A stretch of 64,000 nucleotides of DNA from a virus, in the UHGV virus genome UHGV-0090252; one strand, written 5' to 3'. The notes under the pieces are model-generated. The model had not been told where the DNA came from, ran no database searches, and saw only the letters and a list, made by a program, of their open reading frames with translations. Of this stretch, positions 31,421-34,161 are shown piece by piece; position 1 is the stretch's first letter; every line of letters starts with the position of its first letter. The translations under genes were made by a program, and so were the position numbers.

Positions 31421-31568
31421 ATTAAATTATCTTTGTAGATAAGCTACCCAGACTTGCTTAAGGTCTGTAGCGATGTGCCTTTTTGGGTTTAAATCTAGAA
31501 TTTACCCTTTCACCCTTTGTGGTCGCATACTCACAGGTAAGCTTAATAACTTATCTACAAAGATAATT

Positions 31569-31703
31569 ACCAGACCGTTGTTTATCATCTTAAGTGCTAC
31601 CATTACACCAACTCGACCTCTGCCGAGTGAAGGAATCGAACCTTCTCCTTTTCTTTACCGAGAAATAGATTGTTTAAGTTTTGCTGTAAACGGTCTTCTG
31701 TAA
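31569..31703 (-). ncRNA. candidate structured small RNA with tRNA-like T-arm module (Y-RNA-like, speculative)
   Basis: Closing helix AGACCGTT/AACGGTCT; interior has isolated T-arm GAAGG-TTCGATT-CCTTC and D-loop-like GTTGGTGTAATGGTAGCAC; no complete cloverleaf. Confidence 0.3.
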
Positions 31704-31713
31704 ATTTGTTGAG

Positions 31714-31790
31714 CCAGACCAAGTTTTAAATTTTTTCAAAATTGAATTGGCTTGAAAATATCATACGTACTTGCTGTATTTGGTCTTCTG
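31714..31790 (-). ncRNA. structured spacer domain with conserved closing helix
   Basis: CAGAAGACCAA ... TTGGTCTGG closing stem; shares the ACAGAAGACC..TACAGCAA motif with three other spacers. Confidence 0.3.
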
Positions 31791-31851
31791 CCCCTTTAAA
31801 GAATACTCGTAAGAACTCTTTAAGGGAGGGGCTAAATAGCCCTCTCAAAAT

Positions 31852-31929
31852 TGGCGGTTACGAAGGGATTTGAACCCTCATCATCTCCCGTGACAGGGGA
31901 GTATTTTAACCAAATTAAACTACATAACC
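31852..31929 (-). tRNA. tRNA-Asp (anticodon GTC)
   Basis: Anticodon stem CTCCC/GGGAG, loop CTGTCAC. Confidence 0.75.
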
Positions 31930-31934
31930 TTTAT

Positions 31935-32022
31935 TGGTGTGCCGTGTAGGAGTCGAACCTACCGAGTCTCAATGACAAGGGATTTACAGTCCCCACCGCT
32001 ACCATCTACGGGATAACGACAC
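31935..32022 (-). tRNA. tRNA-Tyr (anticodon GTA), long variable arm
   Basis: 88 nt type II; loop CTGTAAA. Confidence 0.7.
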
Positions 32023-32091
32023 ATTTAATTTCTATTCAGGCTAAGGACTTGCACCTTACAAATCGGTGAGCAATCGCTTCTCTCCTAAATT

Positions 32092-32168
32092 TGGCGGTTA
32101 GTCAGGGATTCGAACCCTGTGCCATTCGCTTAACAGGCGACCGCACATACCTTATGTGCTTCCTAACC
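32092..32168 (-). tRNA. tRNA-Asn (anticodon GTT)
   Basis: D-stem GCAC/GTGC, loop CTGTTAA. Confidence 0.7.
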
Positions 32169-32181
32169 ATGTTTAGTATTA

Positions 32182-32246
32182 CCAGACCGTATCTTTCAAT
32201 TTTTCCGCTAAAAATTTAATAAATATTGCTGTAAACGGTCTTCTGT
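32182..32246 (-). ncRNA. structured spacer domain with conserved closing helix
   Basis: AGACCGT ... ACGGTCT stem enclosing about 45 nt; conserved motif TTTACAGAAGACCGTTTACAGCAA starts 3 nt after tRNA 3' end. Confidence 0.3.
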
Positions 32247-32251
32247 AAATT

Positions 32252-32327
32252 TGGAGGCGGGTGCAGGAGTCGAACCTGCCGATACCATGCTAATGAGACA
32301 TGTGAGACGCCCTTTCTCTATACCCGC
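32252..32327 (-). tRNA. tRNA with anticodon CAT (second Met; could be initiator or Ile2 type)
   Basis: D-stem GAGA/TCTC, loop CTCATTA. Confidence 0.6.
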
Positions 32328-32340
32328 AATTCTTAATGAC

Positions 32341-32411
32341 CAGACCAAATATCTTCTTTGTCCGATTTCGTGTCAGATGAGTAGATTAAGTTTGCTGTAA
32401 TTGGTCTTCTG
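32341..32411 (-). ncRNA. structured spacer domain with conserved closing helix
   Basis: AGACCAA ... TTGGTCT stem; motif TTGACAGAAGACCAATTACAGCAA directly after tRNA-Glu 3' end. Confidence 0.3.
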
Positions 32412-32418
32412 TCAAAAC

Positions 32419-32496
32419 TGGCGTTCCAGAAGGGATTTGAACCCTCAAATATCCACTTTGAAAGAGTGGTGACTTTACCATTTTGTCTACTGGAAC
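32419..32496 (-). tRNA. tRNA-Glu (anticodon TTC)
   Basis: Perfect acceptor GTTCCAG/CTGGAAC; anticodon stem CCACT/AGTGG, loop CTTTCAA. Confidence 0.75.
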
Positions 32497-32503
32497 ATTA
32501 ATT

Positions 32504-32580
32504 TGGTCTCTGTTGGAGGACTTGAACCTCCGGCCTTACCGCCCCAAACGGAACGCTCTACCAAGCTGAGCTAAACAGAG
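32504..32580 (-). tRNA. tRNA-Pro (anticodon TGG)
   Basis: D-stem GCTC/GAGC, loop TTTGGGG, T-arm GGAGG-TTCAAGT-CCTCC. Confidence 0.7.
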
Positions 32581-32604
32581 ATAAACTTTTCAAACTCTAT
32601 GTAA

Positions 32605-32636
32605 CCACTTTAACATTATTTTTTAGTGATTGTCAA
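32605..32636 (-). promoter_or_regulatory. possible promoter for the tRNA array (TTGACA -35)
   Basis: Minus-strand TTGACA about 50 nt upstream of the first tRNA 5' end; -10 element ambiguous. Confidence 0.3.
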
Positions 32637-32706
32637 GAACTTTTTTAAAATATTTTTCAGTATCTTAGAAAAGCTCTCATTTCGTTTCTATGTAGAACAT
32701 ATTAAA

Positions 32707-32737
32707 GGGTATCAAACACATTGTCAATACCCTTTTT
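32707..32737 (+). terminator. hairpin plus T-run (terminator-like)
   Basis: GGGTAT-14 nt-ATACCC followed by TTTTT on the plus strand, at the 3' end of the Ro60-like gene region. Confidence 0.3.
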
Positions 32738-32745
32738 AAAACTTT

Positions 32746-34161
32746 TTACCAGATGTAACGGTCAATCATTACTGCTTTGAGCATTACACTGATTGGGTCA
32801 AACTTCTCACCACCAAGCAAAGCTTTTAAAGTGGCTGGAGAGAAACCAGATACCATTGCTACACCGTTATCCTTAACAGACACTTCGCAAGTACCATTAC
32901 GGTTTGCTAAGTACCAGAATACCAGTTGTGGCATTTCGTATCCAGCTTTCTTGTACTTACTCTGAATTGCTTCAAAGTTTGTACGACCGTTAGCTCCATC
33001 AACCTGATTGAACTCCATATCAGAGAAGATGATAAGCTTACTTGGCATATCTTTCTGAGTCAAGTTGTTTCTTTTACCTACCTCAAGAATGCGGTCAAAA
33101 GCTGCCTGTAAGTTAGTTGAGCCATATTCAACGTGTCGCATCACCTGACGATGACGGTTTCGTAAATCACCACTCAGTTCAATGAAGTGAGGGTTTGTTG
33201 AATAAACCATCAACTCATCCTTAAAGCAACCTGTATTGCGTTCTGCTACATACAAGGCAAGTGATACGCCAATATCAAGGGCAGTGATTGAACCAAGATT
33301 CACCCAAGACATTGAGCTTGAAACATCAGTCATACACAAGATGTTCTCACCTTCTGCCATCCAGTTTGGTAGTGCTTTCCACTGCTCATTGGCAACATCT
33401 GCATTACCATGCTTGATAGACTTAATCACATCGTATGGATAAACAGCACCAGCGTTAATCTTAGACTCACCCTTTGAGAGTGATTCGATGTAAGCTTTGT
33501 AACGTTCTCCATCTTTGCGGTTAAAGAGCTTTTGGTAACGTGCAGCAGCGAGTGAAGGAATCTTGCTGTAGTCAATCTTACCAAACTCATTAGCAGAGAT
33601 TTTTTGCTCAACCGTATCAGACAGTGCAGATAACAGTGTGCGGTACTCTTTCTCACTCAAGTTGGCAAACTTGCAGAAACGTTTTACAAACTGCTTATGA
33701 CGTGGTTTGACTCGTGGTAACCACTTAGCTGCCAAACCTGCTGTTGCAGGGTCTAGTAATGCTGCCTCTAAATGTTTGAAGGCATCCGTCTCGAAACGAG
33801 TACCTACGAAGATTTTGAAGTCATCAAAACGACCAAGTTCTGCAATCTTATCCATAATGCGAAGAACCTGTGTAGGCTCTAAAACTTTATCTTCAATTGC
33901 TTGAAGTAAAACAGTTCGGAAAGCTTTACGCTCACCCATACCTTCTCGTACATCTCGCATATGCAGTAAAATACGAACTGCAACATCAACATCCTCATGC
34001 AAAGCTTTGTAGAACAGGTCTGGTAAGATTTCTACATTGCTACGGCTTGAGCCAGCGGCTTTGTAAAAGTCTACCAGAGCAGACATTGATGAAGTATGGT
34101 TTACAGCACCATTTTCAGTCCGACCTGCATGAAGGTGTGCATGTTTAAATAACTCGCTCAT
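32746..34161 (-). CDS. Ro60-like TROVE/vWA-domain protein (putative RNA-binding)
   Basis: 471 aa; C-terminal von Willebrand A domain with MIDAS-like DVSSSMS and layout resembling the Ro60 vWA; helical N-terminal region; lies beside the tRNA array. Confidence 0.6.
   Translation of the reverse strand: MSELFKHAHLHAGRTENGAVNHTSSMSALVDFYKAAGSSRSNVEILPDLFYKALHEDVDVAVRILLHMRDVREGMGERKAFRTVLLQAIEDKVLEPTQVLRIMDKIAELGRFDDFKIFVGTRFETDAFKHLEAALLDPATAGLAAKWLPRVKPRHKQFVKRFCKFANLSEKEYRTLLSALSDTVEQKISANEFGKIDYSKIPSLAAARYQKLFNRKDGERYKAYIESLSKGESKINAGAVYPYDVIKSIKHGNADVANEQWKALPNWMAEGENILCMTDVSSSMSWVNLGSITALDIGVSLALYVAERNTGCFKDELMVYSTNPHFIELSGDLRNRHRQVMRHVEYGSTNLQAAFDRILEVGKRNNLTQKDMPSKLIIFSDMEFNQVDGANGRTNFEAIQSKYKKAGYEMPQLVFWYLANRNGTCEVSVKDNGVAMVSGFSPATLKALLGGEKFDPISVMLKAVMIDRYIW

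Follow-up and report, generated by a model that had tools for sequence, protein, structure and literature searches.

A Ro60-like ring protein gene and four candidate partner RNAs, one of them a tRNA mimic, at the tRNA array of a Felixounavirus

The stretch analyzed here, UHGV virus genome UHGV-0090252 (64,000 nucleotides, one strand, hereafter the window), carries a gene for a 471-residue protein resembling Ro60 and, in the spacers of the neighboring tRNA array, four structured elements that we call modules A–D. The source virus is a Felixounavirus (Felix O1-type), with 99.6% identity to Escherichia phage pinkbiff across 30200-34700 and 95-97% identity to Felix O1, Bas63 (JohannRWettstein) and many others. 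On the minus strand a DUF5681 gene is followed by the 471-aa gene, two sigma-70-like promoters and 25 tRNA genes, among which several spacers measure 70-430 nt. The modules sit 340-1180 nt downstream of the Ro60-like gene, on the same strand. The principal features are as follows.

32746-34161 (minus): DUF2828/DUF7788 protein with a Ro60-like ring, 471 aa, ortholog of Bas63 gp130
27689-32580 (minus): tRNA array, 25 genes, host to the four modules
32338-32413 (minus): module A; outer stem UGAC/GUCA, AGA/G loop, inner stem AGACCAA/UUGGUCU, UUACAGCAA, variable interior
32180-32247 (minus): module B; outer stem UUAC/GUAA, inner stem AGACCGU/ACGGUCU, UUACAGCAA
31712-31792 (minus): module C; outer stem GGGC/GCUC, inner stem AGACCAA/UUGGUCU, AUACAGCAA
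31568-31702 (minus): module D; Class-I-type closing stem and UUACAGCAA around a YrlA-like tRNA mimic

A first-pass annotation, made from the letters alone, had assigned to 32746-34161 a 471-aa protein whose von Willebrand factor A (vWA) domain bears DVSSSMS, a motif like that of a MIDAS, or metal ion-dependent adhesion site. The open reading frame (ORF) is confirmed, and DVSSSMS corresponds to residues 279-285. When 43 homologs, the most distant at 42% identity, were aligned, the complete MIDAS (D279, S281, S283, T349 and D381) proved invariant, as did many Arg and Lys residues in the helical half of the protein. Pfam DUF7788 matched the C-terminal part (148.9 bits, E 1.7e-43, cut-off 27.1), Pfam DUF2828 matched the N-terminal helical domain (103.3 bits, E 1.8e-29, cut-off 29), and phrog_850, labeled 'RNA-binding protein', matched end to end (610.9 bits). 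NCBIfam and a single-sequence search of PDB sequences returned no match to the protein; a profile built from the 43 homologs reached Ro60 among PDB sequences only at E 0.36 and only over the vWA/MIDAS stretch. In structural comparison Ro60 is the best full-length match, and the protein has the Ro60 arrangement of an alpha-helical (HEAT-like) ring followed by a vWA domain. Mycobacteriophage homologs (33% identity) already carry the annotation 'Ro-like RNA binding protein', and tblastn found the protein in 710 phage records. Plant DUF2828 proteins are the only eukaryotic records confirmed, and contaminant scaffolds in a tardigrade assembly contain five mimivirus-like proteins of this family.

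The ortholog in Escherichia phage JohannRWettstein, a sister phage with ~97% DNA identity, is bas63_0130 (gp130). Its structural similarity to Ro60 was reported in the PhageMaP preprint (bioRxiv 10.1101/2024.10.10.617714), so the Ro60-like nature of the protein is already published for this phage genus. In the same work, deletion of g130 led to smaller plaques on a ppl host and complementation restored them; countering ppl is the sole recorded phenotype of the ortholog. Since overcoming ppl requires the Bas63 ortholog, anti-defence or RNA surveillance is the most likely role of the particle proposed below. In that preprint some of the 'tRNA genes' were guessed to be possible Y RNAs, and no RNA was identified, whereas the candidate partner RNAs described here lie in spacers, outside the annotated tRNAs.

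These candidates share a sequence signature as well as a fold. CAGAAGACCNNNTACAGCAA occurs four times in the window (0.33 expected), always on the minus strand and in tRNA spacers, and every copy is followed 60-130 nt later by GGTCTGGY (GGUCUGGY in RNA). RNAfold gave the same closing architecture for all four modules: an outer 4-bp stem, an internal loop (AGA/G), the inner stem AGACCNN/NNGGUCU, then (U/A)UACAGCAA as a single strand, and last an interior that varies. The outer stem differs between paralogs (UGAC/GUCA, UUAC/GUAA, GGGC/GCUC), and the motif reads UUACAGCAA in three modules and AUACAGCAA in one, within a conserved 5' element AAGACC..UUACAGCAA. The common platform is a terminal helix of 7 bp that opens with an A-U and then a G-C pair (5' AAG ... 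CUG 3') and is followed immediately by single-stranded UUACAGCAA. Without the outer stem the window modules measure 58, 66, 71 and 126 nt, and many distant phage copies measure 47-63 nt. Module A ends 10 nt before tRNA-Met and module B 12 nt before tRNA-Asn. As no intrinsic terminator is predicted to separate the modules, co-transcription with the tRNAs followed by processing is probable.

Felix O1, Bas63, Suspvirus and Mooglevirus each carry all four modules. The layout is kept, with different and fully compensated inner stems, in Yersinia phage P778 (protein identity 53%) and in three relatives from metagenomes (53-63%); examples are AGACCGU/ACGGUCU, GGACUGU/ACAGUCC, AGUGUCU/GGACACU, AGGCUGU/GCAGCCU and AGACUCU/AGAGUCU. 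Small 'hypothetical protein' ORFs lie opposite modules C and D in Bas63 (bas63_0137 and bas63_0138; L001 1844-2118), and in the window a 76-aa ORF at 31473-31703 (plus) overlies the module D region on the opposite strand; these are probably annotation artefacts.

Of the four, only module D has tRNA-like parts. The minus strand of 31563-31705 folds with a minimum free energy of -35.4 kcal/mol (z = -3.0), a value equaled by 0/200 shuffles, and its long closing helix encloses, in order, a small hairpin, a T arm, a 7-bp acceptor-like hairpin, the dinucleotide UG and a D arm.

31629-31645 (minus): T arm, GAAGG-UUCGAUU-CCUUC
31611-31628 (minus): acceptor-like hairpin, ACUCGGC-AGAG-GUCGAGU, with a loop closing where a tRNA has its ends
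31594-31608 (minus): D arm, GUGU-AAUGGUA-GCAC, its GG equivalent to the T-loop-pairing GG of tRNA

The UG ahead of the D arm occupies the U8 and N9 positions, and the order of T arm, closed acceptor-like stem-loop and D arm is that of a circularly permuted tRNA. At the element neither ARAGORN nor the Rfam tRNA model called a tRNA. The first-pass annotation had seen in this spacer a closing helix, an isolated T arm and a D-loop-like segment without a complete cloverleaf, and both the fold and the tRNA searches agree with it. That description was accurate but lacked the acceptor-like hairpin, the three sister modules and the shared motif, so that one of the four candidate partner RNAs had been recognized.

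Orthologs of module D were located through synteny and blastn, and compensatory change in them is independent of any descriptor. In other phages the T-arm stem covaries as CAUGG/CCAUG, GCUGG/CCAGC, GCAAG/CUUGU and CCAGG/CCUGG. Among Ounavirinae orthologs the acceptor-like stem reads ACCCUUC/GAAGGGU (Moogle) or ACACGU/GCGUGU (SUSP2, Sf18) while the T and D arms are kept, and the whole fold is retained in Moogle, SUSP2 and Felix O1 despite the differing stems. Elsewhere the same stem is CGUGGU/GCCACG (locus L010), CCUGCCGC/GCGGCGGG (L031) or CUCCCCG/CGGGGAG (Cronobacter phage S13). Domains made of a T arm, an acceptor-like stem-loop and a D arm (T-AS-D) within a Class-I-type stem occur at no fewer than a dozen unrelated loci, and their acceptor-like helices have wholly different sequences that are always complementary.

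Covariation in the platform itself was measured on an alignment (A3) of 53 distinct phage modules. Alignments selected by a descriptor are paired by construction, except for a seventh pair and a motif-anchored test given below. The six pairs that the descriptor demands show another 21 pair types, and in 137 cells both sides have changed; the covariation score is 0.93 against 0.25 in shuffles. The seventh, undemanded pair (A of AAG with U of CUG) is paired in 53/53 modules, including two G-C swaps. All 7 pairs are 100% paired; conservation is 90% or higher at each of positions A3, G4, C37, U38 and G39, and motif positions C6, G8, C9, A10, A11 and U4 are invariant across the 53 modules.

We then built a covariance model, R2, from 36 full-length modules of distant phages only, with interiors masked and no Ounavirinae sequence included. 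Applied to the window without filtering, R2 returned the four modules, at full length, as its four best matches, and the fifth-ranked match scored 16.5 bits.

32339-32409: R2 match to module A, 25.6 bits, E 0.0012, top in the window
32181-32243: R2 match to module B, 25.5 bits, E 0.0012
31569-31698: R2 match to module D, 23.9 bits, E 0.003
31713-31788: R2 match to module C, 23.3 bits, E 0.0041

On 41 other loci R2 gave 57 matches at E<=5, every one (57/57) on the strand of the DUF2828 gene; most begin 25-50 nt past the DUF2828 stop codon or sit just upstream of the gene. A previous model, R1, derived from 41-nt 'mini' modules, was rejected: it could not span interiors of 30-110 nt and aligned to spurious 3' ends.

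Linkage between RNA and protein gene was assessed in a distant set of 65 IMG/VR loci (39-46% protein identity). A strict descriptor, which required a perfect stem of 6 bp, NNNCNGCAA, a tail of UG and an overall length of 38-160 nt, gave 85 matches over these loci against 18 in shuffles. A match within 700 nt of the gene and on its strand was found at 30/65 loci, compared with a mean of 0.7 and a maximum of 3 in 20 shuffles. When the 9-nt motif alone was used as anchor, the six bases upstream of it had a fully Watson-Crick complementary partner in 27% of occurrences, as against 3-8% at control offsets or on the opposite strand. With the descriptor and R2 combined, roughly 54/65 distant loci have an adjacent same-strand RNA, and the adjacency is near-universal. 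The same RNA occurs in phages of Mycobacterium, Listeria, Campylobacter, Aeromonas, Vibrio and Sinorhizobium. In Mycobacterium phage Gabriela, where no tRNA lies nearby, three copies flank the gene and one of them holds a T-AS-D domain; Listeria phage P100 has three flanking copies and Campylobacter phage CP8 two, and the RNA also lies beside the gene in Sinorhizobium phage phiN3. In Aeromonas phage 4_4572, of an unrelated genus, at least nine tandem Class-I-like RNA genes of 48-63 nt lie upstream of the DUF2828 gene (L012 1525-5958). DUF2828 proteins accompanied by AAG-helix-CUG plus UUACAGCAA RNAs are found in phages of at least four bacterial phyla.

Some phages carry the platform in circularly permuted form. 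Here a hairpin N5-CU-[G..A]-AG-N5, in which a short loop joins the CUG end to the AAG start, is followed immediately by the motif (A/U)UUC(A/C)GCA or UUACAGCA.

L013 7895-8015 and 8025-8137: permuted platform, Cronobacter phage S13
L012 3494-3610: permuted platform, Aeromonas phage 4_4572
L057 10921/11060, L063 11086/11224, L079 10689/10827: permuted platform, jumbo-phage contigs (221-233 kb)

In S13 and 4_4572 the permuted hairpin replaces the anticodon arm of tRNA-like genes of 113-121 nt that have a normal acceptor stem and an ACCA end; the S13 record labels these genes tRNA-Ser and tRNA-OTHER. That the platform survives circular permutation is what one would expect if it served as a binding site, not if it signaled end processing. 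Kept in three topologies, the helix and motif appear to behave like a protein ligand rather than a signal at an RNA end. Two further tRNA-like genes, in Yersinia phage P778 (L002 ~10010-10160 and ~10230-10390), are split by inserts of ~75 nt; their acceptor halves match, a D arm and a T arm (GGGUUCGAUUCCC) are present, and ARAGORN did not call them.

The closest known parallel is bacterial Ro60 (Rsr) with YrlA/YrlB in Deinococcus, Salmonella and Mycobacterium (PMC4201824). In both systems the protein is a ring with a vWA/MIDAS domain, several small RNAs adjoin its gene on the same strand, each RNA combines a terminal helix for the protein with a variable effector part, and one RNA per locus is a tRNA mimic comprising V, T arm, acceptor-like stem-loop and D arm. 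YrlA is defined by a closing stem around V, T arm, acceptor-like stem-loop and D (Chen 2014, PMC4201824), and module D has this order. Unlike Rsr, the phage protein belongs to DUF2828 and not to Pfam TROVE, the platform is AAG-helix-CUG plus UUACAGCAA with no GNCGAAN0-1G, and the window RNAs are embedded in an array of 25 tRNAs. A phage Ro60 has been described before: that of Thermus phage phiLo, with Yrl1/Yrl2 (NAR 2025, PMC12135203; PDB 9KOP, 9L5Y), is a TROVE-domain protein, unlike the DUF2828 protein, and its RNAs were picked out by their CGAA motif, with neither a tRNA mimic nor UUACAGCAA reported. In phiLo and Deinococcus, Ro60 with its Y RNA recruits PNPase (PMC12135203, PMC4201824).

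Taken together, these results lead us to conclude, with a probability of about 0.8, that the locus encodes a phage ribonucleoprotein (RNP) of the Ro60/Y-RNA type. Such a pair, with a possible role in tRNA or RNA quality control, had been proposed in the first-pass annotation; the YrlA module order, with stems that covary between genera, and the Ro60-like fold both support the pair itself. Several observations pull the other way. Although DUF2828 and DUF7788 matched the protein, the TROVE family named in the earlier proposal (PF05731) did not at E<=1. Of the Rfam models that it named as a check, neither Y_RNA (RF00019) nor YrlA (RF02553) matched at E<=10 over 27500-34800 or 31550-31720; RF02553 does give a match elsewhere (L096). 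The Ro-binding motif, GNCGAAN0-1G in bacteria or GGUCCGA in animals, is absent from modules A–D. The window modules lie in a tRNA operon with its own promoters, a looser linkage to the gene than in most phages, and no adjacent RNA was seen at about 7-11 of the 65 distant loci. The R2 E-values in the window are modest (~1e-3) and their calibration is rough. Finally, the PhageMaP authors read ppl as DNA-degrading, and an RNA-based counter is not obviously called for (10.1101/2024.10.10.617714). Given the missing matches to the TROVE, Y_RNA and YrlA models, homology to Ro60 and Y RNA rests on fold and architecture, and the protein-binding part would differ in type from that of known Y RNAs.

In the proposed mechanism, RNAs A–D would be transcribed with the tRNA array and probably excised from the same precursors. 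The ring protein would then bind the platform formed by AAG-helix-CUG and UUACAGCAA, much as Ro60 binds Y RNAs at their conserved terminal helix, and the variable interior of each RNA would serve as its effector part. Ro60 itself takes up Y RNA at the outside of its ring and misfolded RNA ends in the hole at the center. The interior of module D, a predicted mimic of the tRNA elbow and acceptor as in bacterial YrlA, may present the complex to tRNA-recognizing enzymes or nucleases, or may act as a decoy for them. The RNP could in this way protect the RNA and tRNA economy of the phage during infection. For any specific cellular target of the RNP, our confidence falls short of even odds.

A second resemblance emerged from Rfam. 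RF01414 (Dicty_Class_I_RNA) is the sole Rfam family matching these elements, and its matches are weak but span the full length. Class I RNAs are 42-65 nt long; their ends are joined by a helix of 6 bp that covaries and has an invariant 5' G, the conserved flanks read AAG ... CUGU, and directly after the 5' strand comes an 11-nt motif CCUUACAGCAA in which U3, C6, C9, A10 and A11 are near-invariant; the remainder is variable, and the RNAs, which are abundant, stable and cytoplasmic, were stated to be unique to Dictyostelia (Kjellin 2021, PMC7919456). The phage RNAs share the covarying terminal 6-bp helix with its invariant 5' G, the AAG ... CUG(U) flanks (AAG...CUGG in the window), (CC)UUACAGCAA after the 5' strand with C6, C9, A10 and A11 invariant, and the variable interior. 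The correspondence can be read off directly: GUUGAC-C-UUACAGCAA ... GUCAAC-UG in D. discoideum and (AGA)A-GACCGU-UUACAGCAA ... ACGGUC-UGGU in the window. In length, Class I RNAs are typically 50-60 nt and many distant phage copies 47-63 nt, and the multi-copy array of Aeromonas phage 4_4572 is reminiscent of D. discoideum, which has 40 Class I genes. There are also differences. The window RNAs have an extra outer stem and, without it, lengths of 58-126 nt; the first two C's of the Class I motif are absent from the phage RNAs; and Class I genes have their own DUSE promoter ~60 nt upstream, whereas the phage copies have no DUSE and lie in bacterial-type operons.

RF01414 scored 20.1 bits on module B (32183-32240) and 13.2 bits on module D, where the closing stem, UUACAGCAA and the UG tail were aligned. 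This Dictyostelium-only model matched five RNAs of Aeromonas phage 4_4572 at full length (21.9-29.8 bits) and reached 31.9 bits at L049, 30.2 at L059, 29.7 at L064 and 23.1 in P100. No phage RNA reached the gathering score of 41.5, the best lying at 29.8-31.9 bits, which is within the cut-offs used for distant dictyostelids (>=25 bits, or >=15 with a classifier; Kjellin 2021, PMC7919456). In the reverse direction, 27/34 D. discoideum Class I RNAs fit the phage-derived descriptor end to end. The phage RNAs meet the structural definition of a Class I RNA, not the Rfam threshold, and the statement that these RNAs are unique to Dictyostelia is challenged by the phage data. That phage and dictyostelid RNAs constitute one family, with the DUF2828 Ro60-like ring as its cognate protein, is a more tentative idea that we would lean slightly against at present. 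A peptide-motif search of partial proteomes (Kjellin supplements) found only an unrelated vWA protein, and a literature search on DUF2828, PF11443 or TROVE in Dictyostelium found nothing useful.

We weighed four other explanations. The modules might be real structured RNAs that act without the protein, as decoys or sponges that occupy some host factor, for example a nuclease aimed at tRNA, an RNase or an Rnp1A-like RNA recognition motif (RRM) protein, their adjacency to the gene reflecting no more than expression at the same time. The window copies do lie in a tRNA operon behind separate promoters, and the only protein proven to bind a Class I RNA directly in Dictyostelium is the RRM protein Rnp1A, which is not Ro-like (PMC7919456). 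We nevertheless consider this explanation unlikely: tight same-strand linkage to DUF2828 holds for phages that infect Proteobacteria, Firmicutes, Actinobacteria and Campylobacterota, hosts that have no such specific factor in common; the protein fold is that of a dedicated RNA-binding ring; and rsr and Y RNAs provide a precedent with the same gene-RNA adjacency (PMC4201824). More improbable still is that the modules are processing or punctuation signals for tRNA precursors, such as entry sites for RNase E, RNase III or RNase P, or spacer hairpins. Their position between tRNA genes, with A and B ending 10-12 nt before a tRNA and no terminators separating them, would suit such a role, and the extra outer stem of the Ounavirinae copies offers a possible cleavage site. 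The same RNA, however, stands beside DUF2828 genes that have no nearby tRNA (Gabriela), and the module survives circular permutation. Its 9-nt single-stranded motif with six invariant positions and its variable interior of 30-100 nt are unlike spacer hairpins, and the matching Dictyostelium RNAs are abundant, stable and cytoplasmic.

The two remaining explanations seem to us very hard to credit, the one based on tRNA decay most of all. Were the repeats mobile DNA, such as targets of homing endonucleases or miniature repeats, or did the region encode small proteins on the opposite strand, one could cite the HNH endonuclease genes inserted in the array (Felix O1, Alf5, Meda), the small Bas63 ORFs over modules C and D, and the 76-aa ORF at 31473-31703 (plus). 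Yet the compensatory double substitutions (137 cells; covariation 0.93 against 0.25 shuffled), the absolute strand bias toward the DUF2828 gene (57/57) and interiors that vary in both length and sequence are signatures of RNA, not of coding or transposition. Alternatively, module D could have decayed from a tRNA, or mark where two degenerate tRNAs join, with the repeats left over from tRNA duplication. Its T-arm and D-arm sequences are those of a typical tRNA, pseudo-tRNAs or tRNA-OTHER are annotated in the array in certain records, and Chen 2014 warns that tRNA dimers mimic YrlA (PMC4201824), the L096 hit being one such false YrlA match. However, the acceptor-like hairpin is a perfect helix of 6-8 bp in every genus although its sequence is completely different, which points to selection and not decay. 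In addition, a conserved closing stem encloses the entire element, and modules A–C are without any tRNA parts.

Measured against the literature found and Rfam 15, what is new comprises the four RNAs and the platform they share, the generality of this platform among phages with DUF2828, its permuted forms, and the identity with the Class I signature. A Ro60/Y-RNA-type particle at this locus would supply the missing RNA half of a phage anti-defence factor with a measured phenotype (Bas63 gp130 versus ppl), and the modules give exact coordinates and a mutable 9-nt motif for experiments. It would also define a second, widespread type of Ro60/Y-RNA particle, whose RNAs often include tRNA mimics and take three circularly permuted topologies. 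Annotation pipelines overlook these RNAs, placing small ORFs on the opposite strand or labeling the permuted forms tRNA-Ser or tRNA-OTHER. Should the kinship with dictyostelid RNAs prove true, the function of Class I RNA, open since 2004, would be that of a Y-RNA-like adaptor for a DUF2828/TROVE-type protein, which is testable. The Class I family would then be no dictyostelid invention tied to multicellularity, and phages and eukaryotes would have in common an ancient or horizontally transferred RNP module.

Additional features flank the gene and the array; the promoters are consensus matches only.

34241-34612 (minus): DUF5681 protein, 123 aa, phrog_4114, with a very basic Gly/Arg/Lys-rich N-terminus
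34199-34228 (minus): sigma-70-like promoter TTGACA-18-TAAAGT upstream of the Ro60-like gene
32607-32727 (minus): two sigma-70-like promoters, TTGACA-17-TAATAT and TTGACA-18-TAAAGT, in the gap between gene and array

The DUF5681 gene lies directly upstream of the Ro60-like gene in all Ounavirinae-like genomes examined (L002, L004, L006-L010), and its product may be a partner of the Ro60-like protein or of the RNP.

Other RNA genes accompany the DUF2828 gene in some phages. Listeria phage P100 has a ROOL RNA match (L095 2426-2977; 86 bits, E 7e-16, gathering score 99.1) ~1 kb upstream of gp165, its DUF2828 gene, in a region that also holds tRNA genes and three Class-I-like RNAs, and tmRNA genes lie near the DUF2828 gene at L059 13119-13481 and L064 13909-14286. 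Within the tRNA array of the window, two ORFs share its strand, at 27863-28660 (minus, 265 aa) and 29049-29606 (minus, 185 aa); the corresponding array of Felix O1, Alf5 and Meda contains inserted genes for HNH homing endonucleases. Besides those with modules, the array has long spacers at 30280-30534, 30625-30862, 30940-31186 and 31421-31568. A tRNA-like remnant at 30644-30718 (minus) has an acceptor GGGACG.../...CGUCCC and a T-arm-like GGGGUUCAACUCCUCC and scores 23 bits with the tRNA-Sec model, and the spacer at 30940-31245 (minus) gave weak tmRNA or permuted-tmRNA matches (15-29 bits). Outside this region, a 461-aa protein at 36238-37623 (plus) has four tandem Ig-like repeats of ~90 aa each, with the pattern ITQQP(T/S)(N/S)Q..NEG...GATGYQWKK...GSYTCVV...TVTVN.

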